Positions 3,351-42,548 of a stretch of 64,000 nt of DNA are shown here, piece after piece; position 1 is the first letter of the stretch, and every line of letters begins with the position of its first letter. The position numbers and the translations under genes are program-made. This DNA comes from Candidatus Woesebacteria bacterium (GTDB lineage: Bacteria; Patescibacteriota; Microgenomatia; UBA8517), in NCBI GenBank assembly GCA_013374835.1, contig CP055307.1, forward strand, positions 279,315 through 343,314, in the 5' to 3' direction. The notes under the pieces are model-generated. The model searched no databases. It worked only from the letters and a program-made list of their open reading frames with translations, and was not told the origin of the DNA.

Positions 3351-4346
3351 ATGGATCCGATTATAATTCTGATATTAATTTTGGGCGGGATTTTGATTTT
3401 GGGATTGTGGGTAAATAAGAAACTTAATGATATTTTTGAAAAACAAAAGCCTTCTAACGAATTGATGGAAATAGTAAAGCTTCTTCAGGAGGGTTCTAAG
3501 GAGGATAGAAGGACACTACTTGAGTCTTTACAGAAAAATACTCAATCTCTTAACGAGAGGCTTGATAATGCTGCTAAGGTGATAGGAGAAGTTCAGAGAA
3601 ACATCGGTGAGTTTAGTGAGATCGGAAGAGGAATGAAGGAGCTTCAAGAATTTCTTCAGAGCCCGAAGCTTAGAGGAAATATTGGAGAGCAAGTTTTGAA
3701 GGATTTGATTGCCCAGATGTTTCCGAAGAGTAGTTTTTTTCTTCAGTACACTTTTAAATCCGGTGAAAAGGTTGATGCTGCCATAAAGACTGGTGCCGGT
3801 ATACTTCCTATTGATTCTAAATTTCCAATGGAAAATTTTCAGAAAATGTCTAAAGCCGAGAGAGAAGATGTAAATTTATATCGAAAAGCTTTTATAAGAG
3901 ATATCAAAAAGCACATAAAAGATATTAGTCGCAAGTATATATTGCCCGATGAAGGAACTATGGATTTTGCGCTTATGTATGTGCCTAGTGAAGCGGTTTA
4001 TTACGAGCTTGTGAGAGAGCAAGAGCTTTTAGAGATGGCACAAAGAGCGAGGGTTTATCCGGTCTCCCCTACTACTTTATATTCACATCTTCAAACTATT
4101 CTTTTGTCGTTTGAAGGAAAGAAAATAGAAACACAAGCTCGTGAGGTGTTTGGGATGCTTAGGGCTATAAGAAAGGATTATTCAAGAGTAGAAGAAAGTT
4201 TGACTACTCTTCAGAGGCATATAAATAATTCTTATAATATGATGGGTAATGTTTTGACTTATTTTAGTCATTTGGGGAGAAAAATAGACGCTACTAATAA
4301 TTTGAAGGAAGGTGGGGAAAAATTTCTTGACGAGCAGAAATCTTAA
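3351..4346 (+). CDS. rmuC: DNA recombination protein RmuC
   Basis: N-terminal transmembrane helix, coiled-coil region and the RmuC-type core LRGNIGEQVLKDLI...YILPDEGTMDFALMYVPSEAVYYE. Confidence 0.7.
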   Translation: MDPIIILILILGGILILGLWVNKKLNDIFEKQKPSNELMEIVKLLQEGSKEDRRTLLESLQKNTQSLNERLDNAAKVIGEVQRNIGEFSEIGRGMKELQEFLQSPKLRGNIGEQVLKDLIAQMFPKSSFFLQYTFKSGEKVDAAIKTGAGILPIDSKFPMENFQKMSKAEREDVNLYRKAFIRDIKKHIKDISRKYILPDEGTMDFALMYVPSEAVYYELVREQELLEMAQRARVYPVSPTTLYSHLQTILLSFEGKKIETQAREVFGMLRAIRKDYSRVEESLTTLQRHINNSYNMMGNVLTYFSHLGRKIDATNNLKEGGEKFLDEQKS

Positions 4347-7245: not shown

Positions 7246-8050
7246 AATAAGTTTTACTGAGGCTTTGCGGAAAAATAACTTCTTTGTCTCCGAAACTTTT
7301 TTTGAAATGGGTAAAGCCGAGCCAGCTTTTGTTTGGGTAACGGTTATCGTAGATGCCTTCGAAATCGAATGTTTTGGCTTTTTTCTCTTTTGCCCAGAGG
7401 ATTCCCTGCCAGACAATTTGGTACTGGATTAATGATTTTTTGGCTTTATTGCTTGTGAATGCCTGCCAGTAATAGGCTGTGGGGCCTGCTTTTAGAAAAA
7501 TAGCGCCTGCTGTAAAGTCCTGTGTAGTTAAAAAAAGGGAGTTTTTTTTAAACGATTTTTTAAGGTTTCTTAGATTTTTACGAGAGGGGACGTAGCGAGT
7601 GAAGGGTACAGAGCTTTTCCAGGCTTTATGAAATTCGTAAATTTTAGGAAGTAAGGAGAGGTTGGTAAGATGTGAGTTTTTTGTTTTGCGCAGGGCATAG
7701 CGGCAGTTTTTTTTAAAATTAGAATAGAGCTTTTCTTCCATTTGGGTGAGATCAATAGTTAAGGTTTTTGACGGCAGGTAAGGAGATTTTGTTTTACGAA
7801 ATCCGTAATCAGTAAGAAGGAAATTGTAATCGGTATTTAATGAGGGTTCGATGAGGATTTGGAAGGGGTGGTATTTGTCTTCGAGTGTTTTGATTAGTTT
7901 GGGGGTGATGACAGCAGGGCGCTGGATTTTTATAAAATGGCCGATGAGGGGGAACTTTTTGATGTAGGAGTATGTGCCTTCGGTTTTATCGACAGTCCAG
8001 CCTTCTAGGGACATGAAGCGGGCATAGGATGAGGATTGGCGAATATCCAT
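7220..8050 (-). CDS. FemAB-family peptidyltransferase (FemX-like), paralog 2
   Basis: C-terminal motif AYYWQAFTSN...QIVWQGILWAKEKKAKTFDFEGI matches the FemABX aminoacyl-transferase fold. 276 aa. Confidence 0.6.
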   Translation of the reverse strand: MDIRQSSSYARFMSLEGWTVDKTEGTYSYIKKFPLIGHFIKIQRPAVITPKLIKTLEDKYHPFQILIEPSLNTDYNFLLTDYGFRKTKSPYLPSKTLTIDLTQMEEKLYSNFKKNCRYALRKTKNSHLTNLSLLPKIYEFHKAWKSSVPFTRYVPSRKNLRNLKKSFKKNSLFLTTQDFTAGAIFLKAGPTAYYWQAFTSNKAKKSLIQYQIVWQGILWAKEKKAKTFDFEGIYDNRYPNKSWLGFTHFKKSFGDKEVIFPQSLSKTYFKNLFYKT

Positions 8051-8051
8051 A

Positions 8052-8996
8052 TTAGAATTTTGGCTTGATAAAGCGGGATTTGGTGCGCAGGAAACTCCAA
8101 CGGAGAAAATCTATAGTGCGGTAGGTGTAGTAGAGAGGTTTGTTAATGACTAGATCCCAAGTGCCGATGAATTCGACGACTTTGGGATTGTAGCCTTCTT
8201 TGAAACGGGTAAAACCCTTGCCTTCTTCCCTGCCCCAGAGATCGAATATTTTAAGGTTTCTTTTTTTTCCAAAGCGGATTGCCTCCCACATCATAAGGTT
8301 ATTGGCCATGACATTTTTATATTTATCGGAGGAAGCGCCGTAGGGATAATACAGGAATCCTTTATAAGCGAATAATATCCAAGCAGTTATTATTTTTTTT
8401 TGGTAAGTCGCGGTTAGAAGGAAGGCTAAAGGCTTGTGGTTTGTGGCTTGGGGTTTGGTGTGAAGGTGGTTCCACATGAGGCGGTGGTAACGCTCGGAGT
8501 GGGCGTAGAAGCCTTGCCTTTGAACGGTTTCGCGGGTTAGTTTAAGATAGTTTTCAAAAGCTTGATCTGAATTATTAAGTTGAACTTTTACGCCGCGTTT
8601 TTGGGCAAGACGGATATTGTATCTAGTTTTTGAGGAAAAGCTTTTTAAAAGTTCATCTTTGGTTTTTGTAAGGTCGATCCAGAATGAGGTTGAAGTAAAG
8701 AGGGTTTTGCCTGGCACGCAATTATTTTTTTTGAGGAGGTCTTCAAGTCCTTGCTCTTTGGGGGTAAAAGGCTCGATTTTGATAAAAATCAGATTGTTTT
8801 CTTTAGCAATTTTTTTAAGGTCGGTGAGCATTGGTTGAGTGGGTTTGGGGCCTCGGATAAACATACCTACTTTGTAGCTGGTAACCGGTAACTTGTGACA
8901 AGTAATATATCCATATTTGGTTTTGATAACTTCGTTGCCCCAAGTACGCCTAAAGTCCGCCCAAAATTTGGATTGAAGGGGGTGTTGCGGTAGCAT
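8052..8996 (-). CDS. FemAB-family peptidyltransferase (FemX-like), paralog 1
   Basis: ILFAYKGFLYYPYGASSDKYKNVMANNLMMWEAIRFGKKRNLKIFDLWG...FKEGY has the same pattern as the FemX C-terminal half. Its stop lies 1 nt from the start of paralog 2. Confidence 0.65.
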   Translation of the reverse strand: MLPQHPLQSKFWADFRRTWGNEVIKTKYGYITCHKLPVTSYKVGMFIRGPKPTQPMLTDLKKIAKENNLIFIKIEPFTPKEQGLEDLLKKNNCVPGKTLFTSTSFWIDLTKTKDELLKSFSSKTRYNIRLAQKRGVKVQLNNSDQAFENYLKLTRETVQRQGFYAHSERYHRLMWNHLHTKPQATNHKPLAFLLTATYQKKIITAWILFAYKGFLYYPYGASSDKYKNVMANNLMMWEAIRFGKKRNLKIFDLWGREEGKGFTRFKEGYNPKVVEFIGTWDLVINKPLYYTYRTIDFLRWSFLRTKSRFIKPKF

Positions 8997-9022: not shown

Positions 9023-10879
9023 TTAGAGTATGTCGTTAATATCGTTAAAGTCGTATCTATGGGAATAGCCAGAATTATCTGATGTGTTTAATAGGTTTTC
9101 TGGTATATCCGAAAGAAAACGACTTGGAGGATTGCTTGTTTTTTGTCCGAAATAGAGCCTTTGTTGAGCGTATGTGAGAAATAAGATTTCTTTTGCTCTT
9201 GTTATACCTACGTATGCGAGCCTTCTTTCCTCTTCCAATTGTGCTGGGTCAAAAAGCGACCTTGAGTGTGGGAAAAGGCCTTCTTCAAGACCAGTTATGA
9301 ATATAACGGGAAATTCAAGTCCTTTTGCTGCGTGTAGAGTCATGAGAGTGATTAATGATTGATGTTTTGTATCTGATGATTGATGGAGTGATTTGGAGGT
9401 CGAGAGTTGTTCGGCCTCAACTAAGGCTACGTTTTCCAAAAACTCATCGATGTTTTGAAATTCAGCCGCAACAGAACGCAGCTCCTTTATATTTTCCAGC
9501 CTAGCAAAATTTTCATCCGTTTCTTGGGCAAATTTTGAAAGATAATCAGTTTTGTTAAGTGTTTTGTCCATAATTTCCAGAGTAGTTAATTTTTGTGTAT
9601 CTAGACTTTTTTGGAGCAAGAGAAGGTTTTGTGTCCTTTTTTTCCCAGTTTTGAGTGCTCTTTTTAGGGACACAGGATCTTTAGGATTAATTATTAGTCT
9701 TAAATAAGAGATGATATCTTTTATTTCTGTTCTATCGTAGAATCGTATTCCTCCAATTAATCTATAAGGAATTCCATTTTGAAGAAGTGCTTCTTCTATT
9801 GTGCGGGACTGAGCATTGGTTCTATAAAGAATTGCAATGTCGCTGTAATTGTAGCCTGTGCGCGTGAGTTCGTTAATTTTGTCTACAATATAGCGGACTT
9901 CATCTTGTCCACTGTTTGCCCTAAAAAGTTTTATTTTTTCTCCTTTGGCGTTACGAGTCCAGAGTTTAAGAATTGGATGCGTGGTATTTTTGGATATTAC
10001 CGAGTTTGCGGCATTTAATATTGTTTGGGTGGAGCGGTAATTTTGTTCAAGATTTATTATTTGTATGTCGGGAAAATCTTTTATGAGATAGTTGATGTTT
10101 CTGTAATCTGCTCCTCTCCAACTATATATTGATTGCGAGGCATCACCTACTGCTGTGATATTTTTTCTGTTTCCAATTAGTAGTTTTGTAAGTTCATACT
10201 GAATTTTGTTTGTGTCTTGCCATTCGTCAATTAGAACTTGAGCTATTTTTTCCTGCCAAATATTTAGTACTTCTGGTTTTTCTTGAAACAGAGCTACTGT
10301 TTTGAGAAGTAAATCATCAAAATCTAACCCTCCTGCTTTTTTAAGATATTTTTCATATTCTACATATATTGTGAATACTTTTTCTTGTAATTCTCCATTT
10401 GCAATTTCAGCGTAACGAACCGGACTTAGCATTTGGTTTTTTGCGTCAGATATCTGTGATAGAAAGGTCTCGGGTTTGAAGTTGTCTTTGTTGAAATTGT
10501 GCTTTTCAAGGATGCTTTTAATAATTTCTTTTTGATCGGTTTGGTCGTAGATTATGAAATTTTTTGGAATATCGATTTTTTGACCGTCTGTTCTTAATAC
10601 TTTGGCGCAAAAGCTGTGAAATGTGCCCGAATATTTGGGTACATTTCCTGATAGTTTTGCTATGCGAAGTTTCATTTCATCTGATGCCTTATTTGTGAAT
10701 GTCAGAAGGAGGATCTGATCTGGGTTTATTTTTTTGTTTTTGATAAACCAAGCGGCTCTGTGTGTTAGGACCTTTGTCTTGCCGGAACCGGCACCTGCTA
10801 AAACAAGAAGCGCTTTTCCGTCGAAGGTAACTGCTTTGATTTGTTCCTTGTTAAGATTATTAATTAGCTTGTCTGTCAT
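9023..10879 (-). CDS. pcrA: ATP-dependent DNA helicase PcrA/UvrD
   Basis: N-terminus LNKEQIKAVTFDGKALLVLAGAGSGKTKVLTHR plus the later superfamily 1A motifs DEWQDTN, TLHAAKGLEFPVIFI and YVGITRAKE. 618 aa. Confidence 0.8.
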   Translation of the reverse strand: MTDKLINNLNKEQIKAVTFDGKALLVLAGAGSGKTKVLTHRAAWFIKNKKINPDQILLLTFTNKASDEMKLRIAKLSGNVPKYSGTFHSFCAKVLRTDGQKIDIPKNFIIYDQTDQKEIIKSILEKHNFNKDNFKPETFLSQISDAKNQMLSPVRYAEIANGELQEKVFTIYVEYEKYLKKAGGLDFDDLLLKTVALFQEKPEVLNIWQEKIAQVLIDEWQDTNKIQYELTKLLIGNRKNITAVGDASQSIYSWRGADYRNINYLIKDFPDIQIINLEQNYRSTQTILNAANSVISKNTTHPILKLWTRNAKGEKIKLFRANSGQDEVRYIVDKINELTRTGYNYSDIAILYRTNAQSRTIEEALLQNGIPYRLIGGIRFYDRTEIKDIISYLRLIINPKDPVSLKRALKTGKKRTQNLLLLQKSLDTQKLTTLEIMDKTLNKTDYLSKFAQETDENFARLENIKELRSVAAEFQNIDEFLENVALVEAEQLSTSKSLHQSSDTKHQSLITLMTLHAAKGLEFPVIFITGLEEGLFPHSRSLFDPAQLEEERRLAYVGITRAKEILFLTYAQQRLYFGQKTSNPPSRFLSDIPENLLNTSDNSGYSHRYDFNDINDIL

Positions 10880-10935
10880 TTTGGTATAAAATACAATAAT
10901 TAAAAGCGTTTTGGCTTTGCAAGACTTATTCTAGC

Positions 10936-12048
10936 ATGGAAAAAAGGAGGCATAAATTTTTATCTGAGAGAAGAAAAAGATTTTTGGCGAGAGTAAAAAG
11001 AAAAATTTTGGCAAGACATATTTTGCTTGTTCGTTTCGGCGTTTTTTTATCTATATTTATTTTTTTGAGTCTTATTGTGTCTGTAGGTGTTTTTTTTCTG
11101 AAATTCAGCGGTTATTATAAATACGCTGAATTGGGTTTTACATTTATTTTTGCAAGTAATAAAAAAGTAAAATCTACAGACGGAAGAACCAATTTGCTTT
11201 TTCTCGGTTTGTCGGGTGACGGAGAAAAAAACCCAATTTTATCAGATACTATGATAGTTGCTTCTTTTGATATTTACGGCTCTGGCGTGGATTTAATACC
11301 TATTCCTCGTGATATATGGATTGAGGAGATTGGAGACAAGCTTAATGGGGCTTATCGTTTGGGTAATGAAAAAAGGGTGGGTGGTGGAATTGTTCTTGCC
11401 AAGTCTTATGTTGAGGAGATATTGGGAATACCTATTCATTACGGTTTTTCTATGAATTTTGACGGATTTAAGGAGGTAGTTGATTATTTTGGTGGGGTGG
11501 AAGTTGATGTACCAAGGAGCTTTGAAGATAAAAAATATCCCATTGAGGGGAGAGAGGAAGATTTATGTGATGGAGACCCTGAGTATGCTTGCCGGTATGA
11601 GACGATTAGGTTTGAAAAAGGTCTGACAACTATGGATGGAGATACTGCTTTAAAGTATGTGCGTTCGAGGCATTCGGAGGATTTAGAAGAGGGCACTGAT
11701 TTTGCAAGGACAAGACGAGCACAGCTTGTGATGTTGGCGATTAAAGATAAGTTAATAAGTCGTGATTTTTTGTATCATCCGCGTAAACTTTTTGGTTTTT
11801 GGGATTTAATAAAATCTATTTCGGAGACTGATATGGATGAATATGCCCAGGTTTTTTTGGCACGGAAAGTTTTTGATTTTAGGGATAAGATAAAGATGCA
11901 TGATTTTGACGAGAGTTTACTTAAAAACCCGCCATTTTCTGATTATAATAATTTGTATGTTTTAGTTCCTACTGCAGGAGATTGGAGCGGAATCCATGAG
12001 TGGGTTGGCAAGATTATTGGGGAGAATTCTCGTAAGACAGGGGGGTAA
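10936..12048 (+). CDS. LytR-CpsA-Psr (LCP) family cell-wall glycopolymer ligase
   Basis: N-terminal transmembrane anchor followed by an LCP core: TNLLFLGLSGDG...SDTMIVASFD...GAYRLG...ALKYVRSRH.... Confidence 0.75.
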   Translation: MEKRRHKFLSERRKRFLARVKRKILARHILLVRFGVFLSIFIFLSLIVSVGVFFLKFSGYYKYAELGFTFIFASNKKVKSTDGRTNLLFLGLSGDGEKNPILSDTMIVASFDIYGSGVDLIPIPRDIWIEEIGDKLNGAYRLGNEKRVGGGIVLAKSYVEEILGIPIHYGFSMNFDGFKEVVDYFGGVEVDVPRSFEDKKYPIEGREEDLCDGDPEYACRYETIRFEKGLTTMDGDTALKYVRSRHSEDLEEGTDFARTRRAQLVMLAIKDKLISRDFLYHPRKLFGFWDLIKSISETDMDEYAQVFLARKVFDFRDKIKMHDFDESLLKNPPFSDYNNLYVLVPTAGDWSGIHEWVGKIIGENSRKTGG

Positions 12049-13441
12049 ATTGATAGAGGTGTTCTTTGTGTATTAGTTTGAAGGAAGGATTTTTAAGATC
12101 GATGTAATCGATCAAGAAAATTTCTTTTTTTGAATAAAGATTAAGTGCAATTTGTTCCCATTCGTTTGGTGGTGCGTTAATTATTAAGACGTCTTGCCTT
12201 TTCCCTTCGACTTTTTGTAGATACCAAAGCGGTGTAGAATAACTCCACCAAGAGATAATTATCGAATTTTTCGGAAGTAGATCCATGGTTTTTTCGGCAA
12301 AAGCGCGTGCTGAGTTTGATCTTTCTTGATTTACTAAGGGAAAGTTTGTTTTTATGTTTTTTGCTGTTTGGACTGCGATTATAAGTGTAAAACTAAGGAG
12401 AACTATAAATTTGAATTTTTTAGAGAGACGTAATATTGTGTTGATTGATGAGGATATCCAGATAAGAATAACAACAAAAGAGGATGCGAAATATCTTTCT
12501 ATAACAGCATTTTGATATCTAAGACTGAAAAGGAGTGTACCGAGAAAAATAAATGATAGTGAAAAGTTTAGGATGCGATTTTCTTTTTTAAGAGAGACAA
12601 TTCCAATTAAAGCAAGAGGCAGAAAAACGATTGATATAAATCGTTTTAGTTGAATCGAATAAAATTGAATGCTTGAGAACACGCTTCCTCCGATCCATTT
12701 TCCGGAGTGGGGAGTAAAATCTCTGCCGAAGACGTGACGGCTAAAGGAGTCAAGACTATTTATCGGATAATTGGTAGTTAGGGGAGGTTTAAAGTAAGAA
12801 ATTATTGGTAGTAGTACATAGACGCTTAGACCAAGAAAGAATAAAAGAATTGATTTTATTATAAAAGGCCGGTTTTTTTTGACTTTTGTTGCCAGAATTA
12901 AAAAAAGAGGCAATAAGAAGAAAATTGATAATAAGTGATTTCCGAGCGATAGCCCTGTAATAAGAAAAATAGTTGGAAGAAAATTTATTTTATTTTGGAT
13001 TAATATTTTGGTGGATAGATATATAAAAAGAGATGTAAAAAGAAAGTGGAGTGCGTGAGGGTCTGCAGCTGTTGAGAGCGACCAAACGACGTAGGAAGTC
13101 ATTATTAAAAGGGGTGTGAGTATGGAGACGAATCTATTTTTGGTGATTGTGAATATTGAATTTGAAATAAAGTATAATCCTAGAGAGATAAAAATACTTG
13201 AGAGAAAATTGATTTGAAGCGCTACATTTTTTAGCGGGAGTAAAAAAAGAAACAGTTTTCCTAAAAGTATGTAAGTTGGGTAGCCTGTGGGGTGTGCGAT
13301 ATCGAGCGTGTAGAGGACGGTTTGGAATTCTGCCGTGTCCCAAAAGCCGACGTCTTTTAGTAAAGTCAAGGAATATAGTACCAAAGATGTGGGTATTAGA
13401 AGGACACCCAGCCAAATTTGTTTATCCACAGTACTCCCCAT
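12014..13441 (-). CDS. DUF2723/TMEM260-like GT-C fold glycosyltransferase
   Basis: Polytopic membrane protein. The N-terminal motif FWDTAEFQTVLYTLDIAHPTGYPTY matches the DUF2723 signature (WGDSGEF...HPPGYPL). Its start overlaps the upstream gene by 46 nt. Confidence 0.55.
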   Translation of the reverse strand: MGSTVDKQIWLGVLLIPTSLVLYSLTLLKDVGFWDTAEFQTVLYTLDIAHPTGYPTYILLGKLFLFLLPLKNVALQINFLSSIFISLGLYFISNSIFTITKNRFVSILTPLLIMTSYVVWSLSTAADPHALHFLFTSLFIYLSTKILIQNKINFLPTIFLITGLSLGNHLLSIFFLLPLFLILATKVKKNRPFIIKSILLFFLGLSVYVLLPIISYFKPPLTTNYPINSLDSFSRHVFGRDFTPHSGKWIGGSVFSSIQFYSIQLKRFISIVFLPLALIGIVSLKKENRILNFSLSFIFLGTLLFSLRYQNAVIERYFASSFVVILIWISSSINTILRLSKKFKFIVLLSFTLIIAVQTAKNIKTNFPLVNQERSNSARAFAEKTMDLLPKNSIIISWWSYSTPLWYLQKVEGKRQDVLIINAPPNEWEQIALNLYSKKEIFLIDYIDLKNPSFKLIHKEHLYQFTPLSYENSPQ

Positions 13442-14553
13442 GTGTTAACTATTACCGAAATTGTAAGAAGAGTCCAGTGGATGAAGTTTAGATTTGTTTT
13501 TTTAAGATAGATGATGATTAAAAAAATTAGTACCGGATAGAAGTCAACGGCAAAGCGGTATCCGAATTGACTGAATCCTACTGTTCCGTGCATAAATATA
13601 ACTGCTGTCATTAGAAAAATTACCAGCCAAGAAAAAGCTACCTCAGCTTTTTTGAGAGGCGCGAATAGAGAAAATATAAATGCAGGTGTTGTGATCCAGA
13701 TAGCAAGTCCAGTCCATGACGGCCATATGAATGGTGGTTTTTTTGAGAATTTGGGCAATTCCAGCAGAATTGTTTTGACATGTCTTGGTATGTAGCTTGG
13801 GTGGAAAAGCCCTTTGGAGTACCAGTGTTCATTTAAAACTCCGGGGATTAGTATATATGCTTTATCAAGAATTGATCCGAAGCGAATGAAATTATACCCG
13901 AAGTTTATTGATAGAAAAATACTTAGTATGATTAAAATTTTTGGCCAAGTACTAAATCTTTTTTTATTGGTAAGGTAAAGTATAAGAGGCAGAGTAAGTA
14001 TTGTTTGGAGTCGAGAAAGATAGGCTGCTCCGATGAAAAGTCCTATTGCAATTGGTCGTTTTTTTGAGGCTGTTTCGTAAATTGCAGCTGTTATAAAAAA
14101 ACACGCTGATATTTGTCCCAAATACCAAGCGGAGCCTGTAGCCGAGAGAAACCATATAATTGTTCCAAATCCTGTCAGTGTGGATACCCAAAGTGCTTTT
14201 TTTGTCGACTTCAATTTTTTTTGAGCTATTTGGTATGTTAAGGTAACTGTACCAGCTCCCAATAGATGTGCCAGAATTTGTTGTGGAAAGGCGGTACCGA
14301 AGAACAGGACGAAGGGTATAAGAAGGATAGAAGGCATTGGCGGATAGACAAGATAGTAGTGTCCCCTGCCGTTGGGTACGAGTTCATTTAGCCAGGGGGG
14401 CGCTGACTCGATCCAGTATTTTCCTTTTGTGAAACTTTCCGCGAAAAGTACAAAATAGTTATAGGGAGTGTTCCCTCCCGAGGTTAATAGATAGATTAAA
14501 AAAGTAAAAATAAAAATGATCTGCGGCAGTTTTGTTTTGGCCTGAAGACTCAT
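13396..14553 (-). CDS. GT-C fold glycosyltransferase, GT39/GT83 ArnT/PMT-like
   Basis: 385 aa with about 10 transmembrane helices and an N-terminal loop with YWIESAPPWLNE. Its start codon overlaps the receiver-gene stop (ATGA at 14550-14553). Confidence 0.5.
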   Translation of the reverse strand: MSLQAKTKLPQIIFIFTFLIYLLTSGGNTPYNYFVLFAESFTKGKYWIESAPPWLNELVPNGRGHYYLVYPPMPSILLIPFVLFFGTAFPQQILAHLLGAGTVTLTYQIAQKKLKSTKKALWVSTLTGFGTIIWFLSATGSAWYLGQISACFFITAAIYETASKKRPIAIGLFIGAAYLSRLQTILTLPLILYLTNKKRFSTWPKILIILSIFLSINFGYNFIRFGSILDKAYILIPGVLNEHWYSKGLFHPSYIPRHVKTILLELPKFSKKPPFIWPSWTGLAIWITTPAFIFSLFAPLKKAEVAFSWLVIFLMTAVIFMHGTVGFSQFGYRFAVDFYPVLIFLIIIYLKKTNLNFIHWTLLTISVIVNTWGVLWINKFGWVSF

Positions 14554-14942
14554 TGTGGAAGATTTAGGTATTTTTTGACTTTTTCTACTACTTCTTCGGG
14601 TGTTTGCATTGCTTTTACAAGATATTCTTTTACTCCGAGGTTTAGTGCTTTTTGAGCGCTTTCTTTTTGAGGGTGATTTGTGAGTGCTAATATAACAGTG
14701 TTTTTGATTTTGGGGTTTGATTGGAAGCTTGAGAGAAGATCCAATCCTGAATATACGGGAAGCATGATGTCGAGGAGTATCGCGTCAGGGCTTTCCTTAT
14801 TTAGAATATCCATACCGCTTTTACCGTCTTTTGCAACTATTGGATTGAATCCTTCCATTTGGAATTTTGTCGAATACATTTTTGCCAAGGTTTGATCGTC
14901 TTCTATTATTAACACCGTTGGGTTTTTTGAGTTTGTGTACAC
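14550..14942 (-). CDS. Stand-alone CheY-like response regulator receiver domain
   Basis: LIIEDD...ILLDIMLP (phospho-acceptor Asp)...ALTNH...K. There is no output domain. 130 aa. Confidence 0.8.
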   Translation of the reverse strand: MYTNSKNPTVLIIEDDQTLAKMYSTKFQMEGFNPIVAKDGKSGMDILNKESPDAILLDIMLPVYSGLDLLSSFQSNPKIKNTVILALTNHPQKESAQKALNLGVKEYLVKAMQTPEEVVEKVKKYLNLPQ

Positions 14943-15002
14943 TTTATTTATTATATTATATAGTCCAATCGGTCAGTATGGGTTATATTTTATATATAAA
15001 AC

Positions 15003-17439
15003 AATGGTTGGCAAAATGAAAAAATTAGAGTATGAAATATTATTTTTTCTTGCTGTTGGGTTTTTATTGAGAATTTTTCTTTCTCCTTTTGGTACTTTAG
15101 AGCTTGATTTTAATACTTTTATTTCTTGGAGCAGAACGCTTTCGGAGCATGGGTTTAGCGAGTTTTATAACGGCTGGTCTGATTACTTGCCTGGATACCT
15201 TTATGTGCTTTACTTTTTGGGAAAAATAAGCGTTTGGTTTAGCTTCTTAGATCCTCATTTAGTTTATAAATTGCCCGCGATAATTGCTGATATGGCAACC
15301 GCTTATTTGATTTATAAAATTGTCAGAAGATACAAAAGTAAAAATTTTTCTTTAATGATTGTAAATTTTTATATTTTTAATCCGGCGGTTTTTGCAAATT
15401 CTTCTTTGTGGGGACAGGTGGATTCGCTTACTTCGTTTTTTTCGATTGCAGCTTTGTACTTTTTAGATAAGAATTCGTTTTTTATATCAAGTTTTTTATT
15501 TTCTTATGGGGTGCTGGTTAAACCCCAGACTTTGTTTATCCTGCCTGTTATTTTTTTTGTTTTTTGGAAGAAGAAATGGAGAGTTAAAAATATTTTTTTA
15601 TATATTTTATTTTCTGCTATTTTTTTCTTTTCGATGTTTATTCCCTTTTCATCGGGGAATTTGATTGAGTTTGTTTTTCGGCGGGTGTTTTTGTCTTTGG
15701 AGCAGTATCCTTATACAAGTGTAAACGCTATTAATTTTTGGAGTATTTTTGGATTTTGGAAGAGTGATACAAGTGGGATTATCCCTCCTTTTTTAATAGG
15801 TTATTTTATTAGTTTTATTATTCTTTCGGGTATTTTTTTTAAAGCTTGGAGGAGGAGTTCTTTGCTGGTTGAAAAAGATAAATATTATTACGCTTCGATT
15901 GTGTTTTTTACTTTATATCTTTTTATGACACGAATGCATGAGAGACATCTTTTGCCTGTTATTGCCCCTTTGCTTATAGCCGTCGCGTTTAGCCCTTTTT
16001 TGATGATCGTTTATGTGGGGCTTTCTTTTTTATATGTTGTGAACCTTTACTATTCTTACGTTTGGATAACCGACGGCTTTAGAGAGGTGTTTAATACACC
16101 CGCAATTATTCTTTTTTCGTTGTGTAGTATTTTCCTTTTTGTTTTTTCTTTAATGAGGGAGAGTTTTGGAGACTTTGACATTAATAATTTGTCAGACTTA
16201 TTTAAAGAGCGTGGGAGAGCTGTAAAAACTACCCTTTTTAAGGGAAAAGATCTTGATTCAAGAAAGGCTAGGCGAGTATTGATAGCGATAATTTTGTTTC
16301 TTTTGGTTTCGAGAATTTACGGGATTGGCACCCCAGAACATGAATATTTTGATGAGATTTATCATGCTTTTACTGCAAAGCTTATACTTCATGGTGATCC
16401 TAAGGCTTGGGAGTGGTGGAACCCTCACCCTGAAGGATTTGCTTATGAATGGACTCACCCGCCATTGGCGAAAGAAATTATGGCTGTGGGGATGTATTTA
16501 ATGGGTGAGAGTTCTTATGGTTACAGAGTACCTGCTGTTATTTTTGGGGTCGGAGTAGGAATATTGGTTTATTTTATTTCTTATGAAATATTTAAGGACA
16601 GAAAGACGTCGCTTTTTTCGGTGGGTGCGCTTTCGCTTGAGGGTCTGTTTTTGGTTATGAGCAGGATTGGGATGAACGATATTTATTTTTTGTTCTTTAT
16701 GCTTTTGAGTTTATATATGTTTTTAAGATCAAAGTACTTTTTTTCATCTTTAGCTTTTGGATTTTCTTTGGCATCGAAATGGACGGCTTTTTGGTTTTTT
16801 CCGCTTCTTGTTGTTGCTCATTTTTCTTTTAAAAAGAAATTTTCTTTAGGTTATTTTTGGTATTTATTAATTCCGGCTACCCTTTATGTTGCTAGTTACA
16901 CCCCGATGTTTTTGACAGGACATGATTTTAGTATATTTACTGGTATGCAAAAGCAGATGTGGTGGTACCACACCAATTTGGAGGCGGAGCATGCGTACAC
17001 TTCGCCATGGTGGAGCTGGCCTTTGCTTATTAGGCCTGTTTGGTTTTATACGAGTTCGAATGATTCCGGATTAGTAGCAAATATTTATGCGATGGGTAAT
17101 CCTGTTGTTGTTTGGTTTGGGCTTTTAAGTATTGCTTACATTTCTTTTTATTCGTTTAGGATTAAAAGTAAAAGATTAGGATTTGTTGTGCTATCTTATT
17201 TAATGTTTTTTGTACCTTGGGCCTTTTCCCCAAGAATAATGTTTTTTTATCATTATTTGCCTTCTATTCCATTTCTTTCGATGGGTATAGGTGTTTTTTT
17301 ACGAATGAGACCTAAGTATATTTTTGTATTTTTTTTCCTTGGAGTGCTGGCTTTTTTGTACTTTTATCCACATTGGACAGGAATTTTTGTTCCACGATGG
17401 ATTAATAAGAGTTATTATTGGATAGAATCTTGGCGATAA
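15003..17439 (+). CDS. Large membrane glycosyltransferase: N-terminal GT-C-like polytopic module plus C-terminal PMT/GT39-like module
   Basis: The second half contains FDEIYHAFTAKLILHG...NPHPEGFAYEWTHPPLAKEIMAVG, which matches the PMT/GT39 DE...HPPL signature. The first half is a separate polytopic module (YLPGYLYVLY...). The start is moved to 15003 (MVGKMKK) because the track ORF start at 14935 would overlap the divergent receiver gene. Confidence 0.55.
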
Positions 17440-17456
17440 GTTTTTGTTTTTTTGGA

Positions 17457-18812
17457 TTAAACTGCCAGAAAGATTCCTAAGAATAGAAATACGGTTCCGA
17501 ATAAAAGCATTATTATTGTTGGTATGGGGTTTCCTGCTATTGGTGTAGCCGAGTCGGTTGATGGGATACTAACTCTGGGCGTGCTTGTTGGTGAGGTAGT
17601 TACTTTGGGCGTGGCTGTTGCCGTGGGTTTAGGAGTTTGCGTTGGCTTGATGGTGGGGGTTGGTGAAGGCTCGTTGCCTGACGGTGTAGATTCAAATGCA
17701 GGTTCGTTTTCCGCAGCCTGAACGATAAAAGTTCTTGTGAGTGTTCTTAATATTCCTGTTTTATCAACCCAAGAGATGGTTATCTTGTGTTCTCCGGGTT
17801 CTAATTCTTTGGGCGGGCTCCATTTCCACGCACCCGAGCTGGGGATTGTTAATTCATCGCTTATGAGGTCTGATTCAACAGTTATTTTAATTGAGTTTCC
17901 TGATGGGCCTTTTCCAAAGAATTCCGGGTCATTTGTGAATATTATTTCGCCATCTTCGATACTATCTAGGGTAACCGAGCTTGTTTCTTCCTCTTTTTCA
18001 ACTGCCGGGACGACAAATTTTGATTTGATATCTTTTTCCGTTTCCTCCGGAAGATTTATTTGTGATGCGGGGATTTCTTCTTGGTGGCTTCCTGTTTCCG
18101 ATCTAAAGTCGTGGATTTTTCCAAGGGTTATCGGTGGAGTTGGATTTGCTGCTTTTAAATAAATTTGCGCTGAGGCGATTCCACTTGGTCCTCCTTGAAT
18201 AAGAATTTCAAGAAGTGTATTTTCATCGATGTTTGCATATGAATTAAGTGAGTTTGATCTTGCATTTGATATTGCTATCACCCAGTCACCATTTGAGGAG
18301 GTTAGCGTTGATAGTGGTGATATACCAGCTGCGTTTAGATATACAAGTTTATTTGATGCAGGCTGTCCAGTTGGAAGTATGACTTTTCCTGAGATAATAT
18401 TTGTTTTTTGAGGAGGAGGAAGTGGTGGGCCTGTTTTTACTTGCCAGGGAATATTGTTATTATCGTGGTCTTTGCCGTCTGAGTTGATTATAAAGGAATA
18501 GTTTGTATTTGGCTCTAGGTTATGAAGTGATATTTGATGTATATTTTTTGCTGTTTTTTCGGCTTGATATGAGTTATTTTCGTTAGGCTTTTTTTTGCCC
18601 CATTTAAGATATCCTATAGTCTCTTTGTCTGTCGTCCAAGAAACTGTAAAAGACTCACTTGTTATATTGGTTATTTCTATATTTTTGGGAGATGCCTCGG
18701 GAGATGCACCTAGTTTAAAGGTTTGCTGTTGTTGAAGTATGAAAACGCCCACGGCAACACCGGTAATAAGTATTAGTATGCCTAATATTGTCGGAATTTT
18801 CGATTTATTCAT
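17457..18812 (-). CDS. Surface protein: N-terminal signal/anchor, fibronectin type III domain, Pro/Thr-rich stalk, C-terminal transmembrane anchor
   Basis: N-terminal hydrophobic segment; ITNITSESFTVSWTT...NTNYSF is FN3-like; C-terminus is PTPTIKPTQTPKPTATATPKVTTSPTSTP followed by a hydrophobic segment at the end. There is no LPXTG at the C-terminus. Confidence 0.55.
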   Translation of the reverse strand: MNKSKIPTILGILILITGVAVGVFILQQQQTFKLGASPEASPKNIEITNITSESFTVSWTTDKETIGYLKWGKKKPNENNSYQAEKTAKNIHQISLHNLEPNTNYSFIINSDGKDHDNNNIPWQVKTGPPLPPPQKTNIISGKVILPTGQPASNKLVYLNAAGISPLSTLTSSNGDWVIAISNARSNSLNSYANIDENTLLEILIQGGPSGIASAQIYLKAANPTPPITLGKIHDFRSETGSHQEEIPASQINLPEETEKDIKSKFVVPAVEKEEETSSVTLDSIEDGEIIFTNDPEFFGKGPSGNSIKITVESDLISDELTIPSSGAWKWSPPKELEPGEHKITISWVDKTGILRTLTRTFIVQAAENEPAFESTPSGNEPSPTPTIKPTQTPKPTATATPKVTTSPTSTPRVSIPSTDSATPIAGNPIPTIIMLLFGTVFLFLGIFLAV

Positions 18813-19140
18813 TTGTCGATCCCTCTATTTCTTCTTGTGCAGAATTTGTTGCTTCTTCGGATTCAACTGCATTTTCTTTTTTTTCTTCTTGTGATTTTTG
18901 CGTGTTTGAAACAATGTTTATAGGTGCTATGTTTTCCTCATTTATGTATATTCTTTGTTGAAGTGAGCCCATTTCATTAATATCCAAGTTTGGCTCGACT
19001 TTTGCGAGTGTTTCTTCAGATACGATTGGTTCAGGCTCAATACTTAATGCTCTATAGACCTCGAAACCTATCCAGATAAAACTCGTTATCACAGTAAGAA
19101 TTCCTAGCTTGACTATGGTGGGTGAGTTTTTTTTATTCAT
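18805..19140 (-). CDS. Small single-pass membrane protein with an acidic C-terminus, hypothetical (a PilP-like position)
   Basis: 111 aa with one transmembrane helix and an E/S-rich tail. Translationally coupled to the PilO-like gene. Confidence 0.35.
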   Translation of the reverse strand: MNKKNSPTIVKLGILTVITSFIWIGFEVYRALSIEPEPIVSEETLAKVEPNLDINEMGSLQQRIYINEENIAPINIVSNTQKSQEEKKENAVESEEATNSAQEEIEGSTNE

Positions 19141-19798
19141 TTTTATTTATATATACTATCCTTCCTGTTATGTTTGCAGTAAGAGAAAAAGCTGTTTCTT
19201 CATTAGAGATGCTTACTAATGATATATCAAAAAAGATTGGTCTTTTTAGTATTTGAAGATCGGAAATAAATGAAAAGAGAGAGGAATAATCCCCGGTTGC
19301 TCCTATTATGACGGGAATGTTTTGTGCGTTTTCAGGAATGATTACTAAATCATCATCGAGTTCTTCTTGTGTATCCTCTGTGCCGACAATGGTGGCGTCA
19401 GATATTGAAAGTTCGGTTAGATTTACACCGTTTTTTTGTGATAAACCTTCAATTTGTCTAATAAATTTGTGAACTTCGGGTTCGGCTGGGACTGCTTCGT
19501 TTAGGAGATTAATGTTTTGGGTTTGAGAGTCGTAGAGCTCTTTTGCTTTTATGAGATTACTTATTTTTTGATCCATTGTTTTTATTGTTTCTTCTTTTTC
19601 GGTCATTTGTCTATATAGTTTGGCTATTGTGACAAGGGTGGGTTTAATTGCAAAAAGTCCGAAGATTATTACGGTTGCCATCGAAAGCAAAAGCTCGATA
19701 AACATTTTTAAGTCTTGCCGAGTTTTATAAAGCGTAGCGACGTTTCTTAGATATTTTTTGTAAACTTCGTAGTTTTGTTGCCACTTTGTTTGTTTCAT
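19133..19798 (-). CDS. PilO-like type IV pilus inner-membrane assembly protein
   Basis: Short cytoplasmic N-terminus, one transmembrane helix, a coiled coil and then a periplasmic domain. It lies immediately downstream of the PilN-like gene. Confidence 0.45.
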   Translation of the reverse strand: MKQTKWQQNYEVYKKYLRNVATLYKTRQDLKMFIELLLSMATVIIFGLFAIKPTLVTIAKLYRQMTEKEETIKTMDQKISNLIKAKELYDSQTQNINLLNEAVPAEPEVHKFIRQIEGLSQKNGVNLTELSISDATIVGTEDTQEELDDDLVIIPENAQNIPVIIGATGDYSSLFSFISDLQILKRPIFFDISLVSISNEETAFSLTANITGRIVYINKNE

Positions 19799-19811
19799 TT
19801 TTTTATTTTAA

Positions 19812-20420
19812 CTAAGTTTCATTTTTTGCGTTTTCCGAAAAGATTGGTCTAATGTTGATTGTAAAATCTATGAAGATAGATTCTTTGTTTGATTCTATTT
19901 GAGATATTGTGATGTTTTCGAATTCCTCTTCGGCTTTTAAGTTTGCTACGAATTGAGATATATTTTGTTCCACTAGGCTTTGTCCTTTAATTATTATTTC
20001 CTCGGGTTTTTTGGAATAAGAAGTAAGCGTTACTTCTTGCGGCAGCCTTTTGACTATTTTTTCTAAGCTTGGTGCTGGTTTGTATTTCTCATCGTTTAGA
20101 AATTTATAAATGGCGAGTTTTTTTTGGGTAAGTTTAAACTCTTTTTCGAAATTGGAGTAAGACTTTATTAGGTTTTCTTTTTGTTCTATCTCGTCGTTTA
20201 GGTTTGAGTGCTTAATATCTAGCCAGAAGCGTGCAATAAAGCCCATTATAACTATTAATTCTACGAATATAACTATAAACCTAAATGTTGTTAAAATCCA
20301 CTTTAATATTCGTCCCGTTGGCGATGATTCGAATTCGCTTTGTGGGAGAAGATTTATTTGTCTTTTTTTAGAACGGACAGGCATATCCTTTGCTTTTTGT
20401 GCTTTATGTAAATATAACAC
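19812..20420 (-). CDS. PilN-like type IV pilus assembly protein
   Basis: Hallmark INLLP motif (RQINLLPQSEFE) followed by a single transmembrane helix and a periplasmic domain. Confidence 0.55.
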   Translation of the reverse strand: MLYLHKAQKAKDMPVRSKKRQINLLPQSEFESSPTGRILKWILTTFRFIVIFVELIVIMGFIARFWLDIKHSNLNDEIEQKENLIKSYSNFEKEFKLTQKKLAIYKFLNDEKYKPAPSLEKIVKRLPQEVTLTSYSKKPEEIIIKGQSLVEQNISQFVANLKAEEEFENITISQIESNKESIFIDFTINIRPIFSENAKNET

Positions 20421-20442
20421 AGAATAAGTCTACTCTGGTAGA

Positions 20443-20691
20443 TTATTTTTGTTTTTTAGAGATTTGAAGTTTGGAGAGAGTGCTTTTGATGCGTGAAGCT
20501 TTGTTTTTGTGAATTATTTTCTTTTTAGCTGCTTTATCGGCTTGGGATATTGCTTTTGAGATATCTTTTAGCTTTTTGCTTTTTTTAGCAATGCGTAACG
20601 AAGCCTCCATTGAGGATAATATTTTTTTATTTATTTTTGCTTTTCTTTTTGAGCTTCTGAGGGCTCTTTTGGCTGTTTTTGTTATAGGCAT
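20443..20691 (-). CDS. rpsT: 30S ribosomal protein S20
   Basis: MPITKTAKRALRSSKRK...KIIHKNKASRIKSTLSK. 82 aa. Confidence 0.8.
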   Translation of the reverse strand: MPITKTAKRALRSSKRKAKINKKILSSMEASLRIAKKSKKLKDISKAISQADKAAKKKIIHKNKASRIKSTLSKLQISKKQK

Positions 20692-20769
20692 AAATTATAA
20701 ACTTTAATAGCAATTTGTTGCGGATTGTTGATTGTGAGTATAAAGCATGCGATATAAAATATCAAATAG

Positions 20770-22500
20770 ATGATAATAAAAATACCAAGAGGAATCGTTT
20801 TGAGGGGCAAAAGACTTATTTTTTCTGAGCAGAATTCGATACTTTCTGCCGCGAGCATTATTATGGTGATGATTGTTTTTTCAAAGATTTTGGGGTTAGT
20901 TAGACAAAGGGTGCTTTTGAGTTTTTTTGTTCCGGATGAGCTTAGCCTTTTTTTTGCTGCATTTAGATTTCCCGACCTTGTGTTTGAGGTGCTTACGATG
21001 GGTACTTTATCTAGTGCTTTTATACCTGTTTTTACAAAACTTTTTAAGAAAGATCAGCAGCTTGCTTGGAAAACTGCTGGAAGGATGCTTAATCTTGGGC
21101 TTTTAATATTTGCTTTGATATCTATAGTGTTTGGTATATTTGCAGAAGATTTATATAGAATAGTAGCTCCAGGATTTAGTCCAGAGCAAACGGAGAAGAT
21201 TGGATATTTGGCACGAGTTTTGTTTGCTGCTCAGGGGTTTTTTGTAATTAGTTATATTTTAACCGGAGTTTTGGAGTCGTTAAGGCGGTTTTTGATCCCG
21301 GCGTTGGCTCCTCTTTTTTATAATCTCGGAATTATAGCGGGAACCGTGCTTTTTTCGAGCAGATTTCATCTTCTTGCTCCTTCGCTGGGCGTACTTATGG
21401 GTGCATTTGCTCACTTTTTAATACAGCTTCCTTTGTCATATAAGCTTGGGTTTAGATTTGAGATTTCGTTAAGACCCACAAAAGAAGTAAAAAAGATTGG
21501 TAGGCTTGCAATGCCTAGGATATTTGAGCTTTCGGTTTTGCAGATTTCGAAAACTGTAGAGCTTTTTTTAGCCTCTCTTATTTCTACTGCATCGTATACT
21601 TATTACACTCTTGCAAATTCCGTGCAACTTATACCTGTGGGACTTTTTGGAGTGAGTTTGGCAAAAGCTGCACTTCCTACTTTGACCAGCCAATCGGATG
21701 ATCTTGCCAAATTTAAAAGCACTTTTTTCTCGACTTTGTATCAGGTGGTTTTTTTAGTGATGCCTATCGCGGGTGGATTGATTGTGTTTCGAATACCAAT
21801 TGTCAGATTGTTATTTGGCACGGATATCTTTGATTGGGAGGCTACGGTGCAGACCGGATTGGTTTTATCTGCCTTTGCATTGGGAGTTCCTTTTCAAGCT
21901 GCCGTAATGCTTCTTAATAGGGCGTTTTATGCGCTGAATGATACAAAGACTCCTGTTTTTATTTCTCTTATTGGTACGACAATTGCAATTATTTTTTCTT
22001 TTATCGGTATACTGCTTTTAGACCTTCCAACTTGGGCGCTGTCCGCATCCTTTTCTTCGGGGGTAATTGTCCAATCCATTCTACTTTTTTATATATTGAG
22101 TAACAGGATAAACGGTGGAGTATTGATAAATTTATATCCTTTTTTCAAGACGATTGTTTCAAGTTTGGTATCAAGTGGAGTGATGTACTTTATTCTTAAG
22201 TTTTTTGATAGATCGGTTTGGGTTAAGCGATTATCTTTTTTGGGGAGTTTGGATGCGCATAAAAGGCTTGATTTTGAGAAATTTGTATTGGATACACGAT
22301 ATACTACAAATTTATTAATTCTTACTTTGGTAACCTTTTTAGTGGGTGGTGTTTTTTACTTTTTGGCAGGTTATTTACTGAGATCACAAGAACTGTTTAC
22401 TTTAACAAGCCTTATCAAAAGGAGAAAAAAAATATCTTCTCCGCCTATTCGAGAATCCGAAACAGTATCTCCTTCTGTAAAGGATAATACGGAATTTTGA
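20770..22500 (+). CDS. murJ: Lipid II flippase MurJ
   Basis: N-terminus AASIIMVMIVFSKILGLVRQRVLLSFF...FFAAFRFPDL and 14 transmembrane helices, typical of MurJ/MviN. Confidence 0.85.
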   Translation: MIIKIPRGIVLRGKRLIFSEQNSILSAASIIMVMIVFSKILGLVRQRVLLSFFVPDELSLFFAAFRFPDLVFEVLTMGTLSSAFIPVFTKLFKKDQQLAWKTAGRMLNLGLLIFALISIVFGIFAEDLYRIVAPGFSPEQTEKIGYLARVLFAAQGFFVISYILTGVLESLRRFLIPALAPLFYNLGIIAGTVLFSSRFHLLAPSLGVLMGAFAHFLIQLPLSYKLGFRFEISLRPTKEVKKIGRLAMPRIFELSVLQISKTVELFLASLISTASYTYYTLANSVQLIPVGLFGVSLAKAALPTLTSQSDDLAKFKSTFFSTLYQVVFLVMPIAGGLIVFRIPIVRLLFGTDIFDWEATVQTGLVLSAFALGVPFQAAVMLLNRAFYALNDTKTPVFISLIGTTIAIIFSFIGILLLDLPTWALSASFSSGVIVQSILLFYILSNRINGGVLINLYPFFKTIVSSLVSSGVMYFILKFFDRSVWVKRLSFLGSLDAHKRLDFEKFVLDTRYTTNLLILTLVTFLVGGVFYFLAGYLLRSQELFTLTSLIKRRKKISSPPIRESETVSPSVKDNTEF

Positions 22501-42546: not shown

Positions 42547-42548
42547 AG

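Follow-up and report, generated by a model that had tools for sequence, protein, structure and literature searches.

Do the polytopic membrane glycosyltransferases encoded side by side in the genome of a Candidatus Woesebacteria bacterium (Patescibacteriota; Microgenomatia) form one system and, if they do, what does this system glycosylate? The locus lies in a stretch of 64,000 nucleotides (GenBank assembly GCA_013374835.1, contig CP055307.1, positions 279,315 to 343,314 of the forward strand), called here the window, whose numbering is used throughout. Three polytopic proteins encoded at 12014-17439, named P1, P2 and P4, hold four modules of GT-C fold. A first-pass annotation made from the DNA sequence had recognised a coherent, poorly described system with two possible roles, either a pathway dedicated to the O-glycosylation of a neighbouring fibronectin type III (FN3) surface protein or Emb/Aft-like synthesis of a wall glycopolymer. 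The genes that it listed are all present where it had placed them, with the start of P4 shifted from 15003 to 15004. Their membership of a common system is borne out by the positions of P2 and P4 side by side in Microgenomates, by clusters in several phyla that add GT2 and GtrA-type proteins, by gene fusions, and by one locus where the GT-C genes are together in a different neighbourhood. We favour, with moderate confidence, the hypothesis that the locus encodes a glycosylation module dependent on polyprenyl-phosphate sugars, most likely for O-glycosylation of secreted or wall-associated proteins of the O-mannosylation type.

Gene neighbourhoods were compared in a set of 80 loci (L numbers below) with 10-kb flanks, obtained by a search seeded with the P2 alignment over one genome per species. 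Open reading frames (ORFs) of these loci were labelled by comparison with the window proteins, and 54 of the loci are from Microgenomates. The nearest genome locus, L002 of Candidatus Woesebacteria UBA1430, has 96% identity at the P2 protein.

P4, two GT-C modules in one polypeptide

The start of P4 at 15004 agrees with the public gene call. Position 15003 was ruled out because it is out of frame, and the longest ORF, starting at 14935, gave no match in an exact look-up while the protein starting at 15004 did. The structure predicted for P4 has two helical membrane modules, residues 1-390 (15004-16173, plus strand) and 419-811 (16258-17439, plus strand), separated by a linker of residues 391-418 (16174-16257, plus strand) that is predicted to be disordered, with predicted local distance difference test values below 50 at residues 391-409. 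The linker is Lys/Arg-rich (about 10 such residues) and, following the positive-inside rule, probably cytoplasmic, which would orient both modules with their amino termini inside and their first loops outside. Kyte-Doolittle counting of transmembrane (TM) segments was too crude for topologies and was used for single-TM proteins only.

The signature of protein O-mannosyltransferases (PMT) that the first-pass annotation had read in the carboxyl-terminal half of this two-module protein proved to be genuine. The C-module scores 41.3 bits against the Pfam PMT model PF02366 (gathering threshold 22.7) and 57.5 bits against PMT_4TMC PF16192 (gathering threshold 32.4), and both models are matched in 30 out of 30 P4 homologues. 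Its first extracytoplasmic loop carries the PMT-type Asp-Glu motif, D450-E451 within YFDEVYHAF, invariant in the 30 sequences, and its fold superposes on solved PMT structures. NCBI labels on the homologues read 'glycosyltransferase family 39 protein' and 'protein O-mannosyl-transferase family'. No match to a MIR domain was found in the C-module, where the loop measures only about 40 residues; this does not exclude a bacterial-type PMT because actinobacterial PMTs are also devoid of MIR. The C-module passes the family tests for a bacterial-type member of GT39, with a predicted activity of mannosyl transfer from polyprenyl-phosphate-mannose to Ser/Thr of proteins.

The N-module is related to GT87, PIG-M (GT50) and PIG-U. 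The GT87 model PF09594 is matched by 6 of 30 P4 homologues (best E-value 2.6e-8) and PIG-U by 4 of 30, while a homologue encoded by a separate gene in L055 scores 25.8 bits against the PF09594 cut-off of 25. When compared with the PDB, the family profile of the N-module hits GPI mannosyltransferase I (PIG-M) at 7.6e-7 and the full-length profile does so at 1.8e-4. Among 61 members, including the separate genes of other phyla, residues D96, D140, K89, K173 and H312-E313-R314 are invariant (61/61), D35 is kept in 60 and D60 in 59. The catalytic residue of PimE is D58, at the tip of the first juxtamembrane helix; further residues of this enzyme are D160, K195 and H321/H322, its Lys and His residues binding phosphate (PMC12041525). 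The conserved residues of the N-module recall these PimE residues in kind and approximate position. Membership of the N-module in the GT87/GT50-type families is borderline on present profile scores.

P2, a third GT-C family

P2 (13396-14553, minus strand) is a minimal GT-C-fold protein of 385 aa and a core member of the locus. It had been annotated as an ArnT/PMT-like protein of GT39/83. The polytopic GT-C architecture was confirmed, whereas the family membership was not, neither in Pfam, which gave no match for 20 out of 20 P2 family members, nor in NCBIfam, where model NF047440 (LA_3751/LA_3752) is reached with 32.5 bits, far under its cut-off of 200. Judged by these models, P2 belongs to no described family beyond its weak relation to LA_3751/LA_3752. 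A sequence search of the PDB with the P2 profile returned chance matches only (E > 0.5), so that structure prediction was needed for this protein. The family is represented by about 3,300 representative clusters and has an invariant R333...D337 motif. Position 57, in the first loop, is a Glu in 83 of 90 members and an Asp in the other seven. Some P2 homologues bear an amino-terminal carbohydrate-binding module, CBM_4_9, which suggests a sugar acceptor and would fit an elongating step.

Clusters in other phyla, fusions and a displaced locus

Outside Microgenomates, the homologues of P2 (36-42% identity) sit in compact gene clusters found in Thermodesulfobacteriota (L055-L057, L066), a Dadabacteria-labelled metagenome-assembled genome (MAG; L050), Armatimonadota (L073), unclassified bacteria (L076, L080) and one Bathyarchaeia MAG (L067). 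Across the Thermodesulfobacteriota, the Dadabacteria-labelled MAG, Armatimonadota and the Bathyarchaeia MAG, separate GT87-like and PMT-like genes stand beside one or two P2 genes, the GT87-like gene preceding the PMT-like one in the clusters as their counterparts do in the P4 fusion. The fullest cluster has the order GT2-P2-P2'-GtrA-PMT-like-GT87-like-GT2-FG-GAP/ASPIC protein-GMC oxidoreductase (e.g. L055:7978-18433). GT2 and GtrA accompany the GT-C genes in the homologous clusters L050, L055-L057 and L066, and the two GT2 proteins resemble AglJ, ArnC, Dol-P-hexose synthases and PpgS, which are polyprenyl-phosphate-sugar synthases. The complete clusters of other phyla constitute the parts list of a lipid-linked-monosaccharide pathway. 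No LytR-CpsA-Psr (LCP) gene was found in the clusters outside the Candidate Phyla Radiation (CPR).

Genes for an Rce1-like protease and for a PMT_2 protein of 359 aa are also present in some copies of these non-CPR clusters. The 12-kb Bathyarchaeia-labelled contig (L067:607-7021) has P2, a PMT_2 protein, GT87-like, PMT-like and GT2 genes together and, if not misbinned, would place a GT39-type PMT set in an archaeon.

Gene fusions provide a second line of evidence. L050 encodes a GT2-P2 fusion, and P0331, a protein of 2012 aa from the representative library, holds the N-module, the PMT module and P2 in one chain. These fusions confirm that the modules are linked genetically. A look-up of P1 homologues led to the usual slot in two places (L085, L086) and, in a third, to L084 (GCA_040960625.1), where P2 (minus strand) is followed by P1 and P4 (both plus strand) between genes for RadA-like, S1, Rho and LysM-peptidase proteins. 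No FN3, Pil, LCP, UvrD or FemAB gene is present within 7 kb at L084. The three GT-C genes hence remain linked in a changed neighbourhood, from which FN3 and LCP are missing.

Organization of the locus in Microgenomates

The gene order is near-invariant in the 54 Microgenomates loci: MurJ-S20-PilN-PilO-sm111-FN3-(two operon genes)-> <-P4-(slot)-P2->(slot)<-LCP-UvrD-FemAB-FemAB-UvrD. P2 is present in all 54, LCP in 49, P4 in 48 and FN3 in 44, and most of the shortfall in the last three comes from loci that run off the contig end. Six loci have no full-length P4 call; most of these still carry a fragment of the N-module (P4N-type) or an interrupted P4, in many cases where the contig ends. In L078 and L079, which are of Levybacteria type, the GT87-like and PMT-like genes are separate, adjacent and unfused. 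The grouping of the genes is not due to chance, as they recur together in dozens of genomes. Synteny of the block says little on function, however, because unrelated housekeeping genes are equally conserved in it.

The two slots next to P2 and P4 tell more than the block itself, in that they hold differing GT-C-type proteins from genome to genome: P2 paralogues, PMT_2, YfhO-type and chlor_Arch_YYY-type proteins and, in 4 loci, TMEM260-like P1. One slot family of 630-655 aa with a chlor_Arch_YYY carboxyl terminus occurs in 16 loci, or in 18 counting two DUF2298-like-labelled copies. This family, which has no Pfam model beside its chlor_Arch_YYY (TIGR03662) end (e.g. L039:11103-13070) and is absent from the window, also adjoins P2 homologues in the archaeal MAGs L058, L060, L062, L065 and L074 (Bathyarchaeia/Methanocella-labelled). 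It may be another partner of P2.

P1 (12014-13441, minus strand) is a TMEM260/DUF2723-like GT-C protein, as had been proposed, with a 475-aa ORF and 471 aa in the public gene call. It matches the TMEM260-like family PF11028 with an E-value of 4e-19 and 69.5 bits (cut-off 24.2); its precomputed annotation lists PF11028 together with PF28495. We take DUF2723 to be PF11028, the accession given by the first-pass annotation having been PF10034. The protein ends in a tail of roughly 118 aa, and no TPR family was reported for it in the Pfam scan. P1 occupies the slot between P2 and LCP in L002, L025, L027, L085 and L086, and is found in 4 of the 54 seeded loci: it is an accessory member that fills the variable slot after P2.

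The gene preceding P2 encodes a stand-alone receiver (14550-14915, minus strand; 121 aa by the public gene call, with an ORF that reaches 14942). It matches PF00072 at 2e-21 as a complete domain without output domain, and its translation displays the acidic pocket (EDD) and the phospho-acceptor Asp in LLDIMLP. Its stop codon overlaps the start of P2 by 4 bp (ATGA), which predicts translational coupling to P2. The domain and the overlap thus agree with the co-transcribed receiver of the first-pass annotation, whereas a role as conserved regulator was ruled out, the gene being found in only 7 of the 54 related loci and beside P4 only in L002, L012 and L013. The receiver is a lineage-specific insertion. 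Promoter-like sites are at chance level (29 found against 28.2 expected in a scan of 10800-20900), so that operon structure is argued here from gene overlaps alone.

The variability of the slots raises the possibility that there is no common system at all, and that independent GT-C enzymes with unrelated acceptors merely share a conserved neighbourhood. Both the different GT-C types found by P2 and P4 in each genome, with the rarity of P1, and the synteny of the whole region across the class would be in line with it. Yet the modules are found fused, P2 co-localises across phyla with PMT-like, GT87-like, GT2 and GtrA proteins, and P2-P1-P4 were translocated as a unit in L084; we regard this explanation as highly improbable.

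On the other side of P1 lies the gene for the LCP glycopolymer ligase (10936-12048, plus strand; PF03816 at 1.1e-27; TIGR00350), convergent with P1 and sharing 35 bp with it. It is followed by a second UvrD-like helicase gene (9023-10879, minus strand), the two FemAB genes (7220-8996, minus strand) and a UvrD-like helicase of UvrD/PcrA type with a carboxyl-terminal PDDEXK/Cas4-like nuclease domain (4312-7245, plus strand). An LCP ligase and two FemAB genes had indeed been noted next door. The flanking of the FemAB pair by two UvrD/PcrA-type helicase genes is kept across the Microgenomates loci.

This environment invites the view that the locus serves a wall glycopolymer or lipoglycan, whereby GT-C enzymes would build or decorate a lipid-carried polysaccharide outside the membrane, like Aft/Emb and Mpt/PimE of mycobacteria or, for teichoic acids, YfhO, and LCP would ligate it to peptidoglycan. 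The conserved LCP gene, which in the window has a convergent overlap with P1, and the proximity of wall genes (FemAB, MurJ) are what one would expect, as is the CBM_4_9 module of some P2 homologues. The slots, filled with YfhO-, PMT_2- and chlor_Arch_YYY-type proteins, show the kind of variability that typifies surface polysaccharides, and glycolipids are the substrates of PimE, the GT87 enzyme of mycobacteria. The linkage to LCP is, however, lost outside Microgenomates and in L084, the window has no initiating, polymerising or export genes, and the family identities of the GT-C modules point elsewhere. An Emb/Aft-like identity of the locus proteins was rejected, since the similarity is that of the generic GT-C fold with no match to a Pfam or NCBIfam family. 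We consider a glycopolymer pathway rather unlikely. Of the two roles first envisaged, protein O-glycosylation fits better than Emb/Aft-like synthesis, for which the generic fold and an LCP adjacency confined to the lineage would speak: the characterised members of TMEM260 and of the PMTs of CAZy family GT39 are, as far as is known, all protein O-mannosyltransferases. For TMEM260 this is the family activity described in PMC11292533. The pairing of GT39 with a GT87-like protein favours protein O-glycosylation as well, because it is that of the actinobacterial machinery.

The FN3 surface protein and its operon

Is the neighbouring FN3 protein the target? Its gene (17457-18812, minus strand) is convergent with P4 across a 17-bp gap (17440-17456). 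The protein matches fn3, Pur_ac_phosph_N and Big_13 in Pfam and has, in this order, an amino-terminal hydrophobic (TM or signal) segment, FN3, the Ig-like Big_13, a stalk (nt 17577-17672), TPIAG and a hydrophobic segment (TPIAG and TM, nt 17460-17546). The Pro/Thr-rich carboxyl-terminal stalk that had drawn attention to this protein is real: Pro and Thr amount to 63% over 30 aa. No second stretch of this kind occurs in the window, where the gene is the only Pro/Thr-rich and the only sorting-signal-like ORF. All 44 FN3 homologues have a P/T/S-rich stalk followed by a carboxyl-terminal TM segment, and most display a [LIVT]P.[TSA]G motif, clearer than that of the window as [LIV]P.[TS]G (e.g. LPETGSLTPT), before the TM segment and a basic K/R tail after it. 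The copy of the window has TPIAG and the TM segment without the basic tail. The carboxyl terminus of the family resembles an LPXTG-like wall-sorting signal, TPIAG being its probable form in the window, and the sortase encoded at 42549-43217 (plus strand; PF04203 at 5.4e-23), 24 kb from FN3, is a candidate for its processing. The stalk is probably the usual wall-spanning spacer of an anchored protein, Pro/Thr-rich spacers ahead of LPXTG-like signals being ordinary in wall-anchored proteins. FN3 was also considered as a pilin, an idea that was dropped as its amino-terminal segment is unlike a class III (prepilin) signal peptide.

FN3 is the last gene of a PilN-PilO operon comprising PilN (19812-20420, minus strand; PF05137 at 1.8e-12), PilO (19133-19798, minus strand; PF04350 at 1.4e-5), the 111-aa membrane protein sm111 (18805-19140, minus strand) and FN3, with 8-bp overlaps between PilO and sm111 and between sm111 and FN3. 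The order PilN-PilO-sm111-FN3 is kept in 44 loci. In 42 of the 54 related loci FN3 is followed by two extra operon genes that match no Pfam family and whose products measure about 400-500 aa and about 190 aa; they are missing in the window and in L002, with no homologue elsewhere in the window. FN3 abuts P4 in the window because these two genes that usually separate them are missing. The sole hint of co-transcription of FN3 and P2 comes from L078 (labelled Levybacteria) and L079, where FN3 is directly followed by P2 on the same strand with overlaps of 4 and 11 bp (L078:8604-11140, L079:8530-11140).

A dedicated pathway in which the GT-C enzymes would specifically O-glycosylate the FN3 stalk or other products of the PilN-PilO operon is attractive in several respects. 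FN3 neighbours P4 in 44 loci and directly precedes P2 in the two Levybacteria-type loci, the P/T/S-rich stalk is universal among the homologues, and actinobacterial PMT prefers Pro-rich Ser/Thr regions (PMC12757957); TMEM260 targets Ig-like (IPT) domains of plexins. The adjacency of FN3 is nevertheless indistinguishable from the lineage-wide synteny of the block, which includes MurJ, S20, UvrD and FemAB, and in most relatives the two operon genes stand between FN3 and the convergent P4. P2-P1-P4 persist in L084, where neither FN3 nor a Pil gene lies within 7 kb. Homologues of FN3 are absent from the non-CPR clusters, just 2 of 9 of which contain a Pro/Thr-rich ORF of any kind at a distance of up to 10 kb. 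The spacer is, besides, an ordinary feature of wall-anchored proteins. Conservation of the neighbourhood therefore separates two parts of the first-pass annotation: the P2/P4 linkage is kept, whereas that of FN3 is not, either outside the lineage or in L084. We regard a pathway dedicated to the FN3 protein or its operon as quite improbable. By analogy with the Pro-rich glycopeptides of actinobacteria (PMC12757957), the stalk would be a reasonable PMT substrate, nothing more specific supporting it, and a plausible target among others that the evidence does not single out.

Relation to known systems and proposed mechanism

The actinobacterial pathway starts with the GT2 enzyme Ppm1, which makes the donor, followed by a PMT (GT39) that adds the first mannose and the GT87 enzyme PimE that elongates (PMC12757957). 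In mycobacteria, the proteins reported to co-purify with Pmt are a GT87-like homologue of Rv0051, a beta-propeller located in the periplasm and a small protein similar to DivIVA, and Pmt and its GT87-like subunit were modelled as a Pmt1-Pmt2-like heterodimer (bioRxiv 10.64898/2026.07.15.738315, July 2026). The Woesebacteria locus likewise pairs a MIR-less PMT module carrying the DE motif with a GT87-like GT-C module, and the homologous clusters of other phyla add GT2 synthases, a flippase and a propeller. FG-GAP repeats form beta-propellers, and the FG-GAP protein of the non-CPR clusters may be the counterpart of the mycobacterial propeller subunit. Unlike the actinobacterial system, the locus has both GT-C modules in one polypeptide, a co-conserved third GT-C protein (P2) and a TMEM260-like enzyme; the donor genes are unlinked in the CPR locus, and the organism belongs to the Patescibacteria rather than to the actinobacteria. 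Conserved acidic residues are kept in the N-module of P4, whereas the mycobacterial partner has reportedly lost its catalytic residues. A GT87-GT39 fusion is also found in Paenibacillus (UniProt V9WAU2, uncharacterised; bioRxiv 10.64898/2026.07.15.738315). By its reported architecture alone, it resembles P4 in the fusion of a GT87-family module to a GT39 module; neither P2 nor TMEM260 has been reported as a partner of this protein.

The three-component systems GtrA/GtrB/GtrC, ArnC/ArnEF/ArnT and CsbB/GtcA/YfhO share with the clusters the sequence of GT2 loading, GtrA-type flipping and GT-C transfer, the full set being present in L050, L055-L057 and L066. Those systems use one GT-C enzyme, whereas here the GT-C genes number three to five and the CPR window has GT-C parts only. 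P1 resembles metazoan TMEM260, the O-mannosyltransferase of plexin/MET IPT domains, in matching the amino-terminal GT-C domain PF11028, and differs from it in that no TPR region was detected; bacterial members of this family are uncharacterised. No family-level similarity was found at the locus to mycobacterial Emb/Aft, whose arabinogalactan is ligated by Lcp1. The locus proteins also differ from Emb/Aft in having no large carboxyl-terminal carbohydrate-binding domains and in an LCP linkage that is not kept outside Microgenomates.

We propose that a GT2 enzyme loads polyprenyl phosphate with a sugar, that a GtrA-type protein flips the product and that GT-C enzymes transfer the sugar outside the membrane. 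In the Woesebacteria bacterium the donor synthase (GT2) and the GtrA-type flippase would be encoded outside the window, and the core would consist of P4 and P2. With undecaprenyl-phosphate-hexose as donor, the PMT module could attach the first hexose to Ser/Thr. The other module of P4 might then either extend the glycan, as PimE does, or be the partner subunit of a Pmt1-Pmt2-like pseudo-dimer, while P2 and P1 may add further sugars or serve other classes of acceptors. The fold and family of each module, the conservation of candidate catalytic residues and the genetic linkage of P1, P2 and P4 are observations; donor, acceptor and order of steps are what we infer.

Several observations weigh against O-glycosylation of proteins by this module. 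No GT2 polyprenyl-phosphate-sugar synthase or GtrA was found in the window (tblastn) or in the 54 Microgenomates loci, where LCP is adjacent in 49. The N-module of the window P4 has no match to GT87 PF09594 at E <= 0.01, and its profile did not match PimE in the PDB search, from which no alignment was obtained. The catalytic acid of the first loop that the first-pass annotation anticipated has a candidate in the PMT module of P4, D450-E451, but the residues of P2 aligned to the PMT DE motif are V35-L36, non-acidic, leaving E57 as the sole conserved acid of its first loop. The CBM_4_9 module on P2 relatives, together with the YfhO-type enzymes of the variable slot, hints at glycan or teichoic-acid-like acceptors instead of proteins. 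Lastly, literature searches found no biochemical or glycoproteomic data for any CPR organism.

The same searches found no paper joining GT-C, Patescibacteria and glycosyltransferase, and none on mannosyltransferases of Woesebacteria or Microgenomates. A 2026 preprint on the 'Pam pilus' of CPR bacteria makes no mention of glycosylation, PilN/PilO or genes of the locus. As far as these searches show, novelty lies in the third GT-C family that is conserved along with the others, in the gene cluster found across phyla as a parallel to the Pmt complex of mycobacteria, and in the streamlined core in CPR bacteria; the fusion architecture is already known from its published precedent in Paenibacillus.

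A broader hypothesis may be raised as a tentative possibility. P2, the GT87/PIG-M-like module and the PMT-like module would be three subunits of an ancient and widespread machine for protein O-glycosylation, joined outside CPR by a beta-propeller, two GT2 and GtrA, and distributed in Patescibacteria, Thermodesulfobacteriota, Armatimonadota and perhaps Bathyarchaeia. P2 would then represent a new GT-C family that is the obligate partner of bacterial PMT, and the Woesebacteria version, streamlined by subunit fusion, would glycosylate wall-anchored or pilus-associated proteins for attachment to the host.

Other features of the window

Upstream of PilN are the genes of ribosomal protein S20 (20443-20691, minus strand) and MurJ (20770-22500, plus strand), the latter followed by HrcA, GrpE, DnaK and DnaJ. 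GC skew is strongly positive (0.17-0.41) in all 2-kb bins of 1-64000, at a GC content of 34-43%, and this persists across 7-20 kb, where minus-strand genes dominate. The genes rpoB and rpoC are apparently one: a 2342-aa ORF (44936-51964, plus strand) has all RpoB and RpoC Pfam domains, and the same 2342-aa product is also called on the independent assembly SRR7008310. The region 40360-43217 (plus strand) encodes a 728-aa protein with a TM segment in its middle, a weak match of Baseplate_J-like type (3e-5) and a carboxyl terminus that is not LPXTG-like. Its gene stops 2 bp 5' of that of the sortase, which suggests an operon.

Significance

To our knowledge, PMT-type protein O-mannosylation in bacteria has been the subject of experimental study in Actinobacteria only, and the multi-subunit nature of the actinobacterial PMT machinery was proposed only in 2026. 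At the locus, the pairing of GT39 with a GT87-like protein is built into one fused chain, and this in a lineage that is uncultured and depends on hosts. If our hypothesis of O-glycosylation holds true, chemistry of the protein O-mannosylation type reaches the Candidate Phyla Radiation, a membrane protein family devoid of Pfam model gains a function, and work on PMT with partner GT-C subunits gains a compact single-chain model. Glycosylation of the cell surface could also matter for the recognition of the host by these episymbionts.

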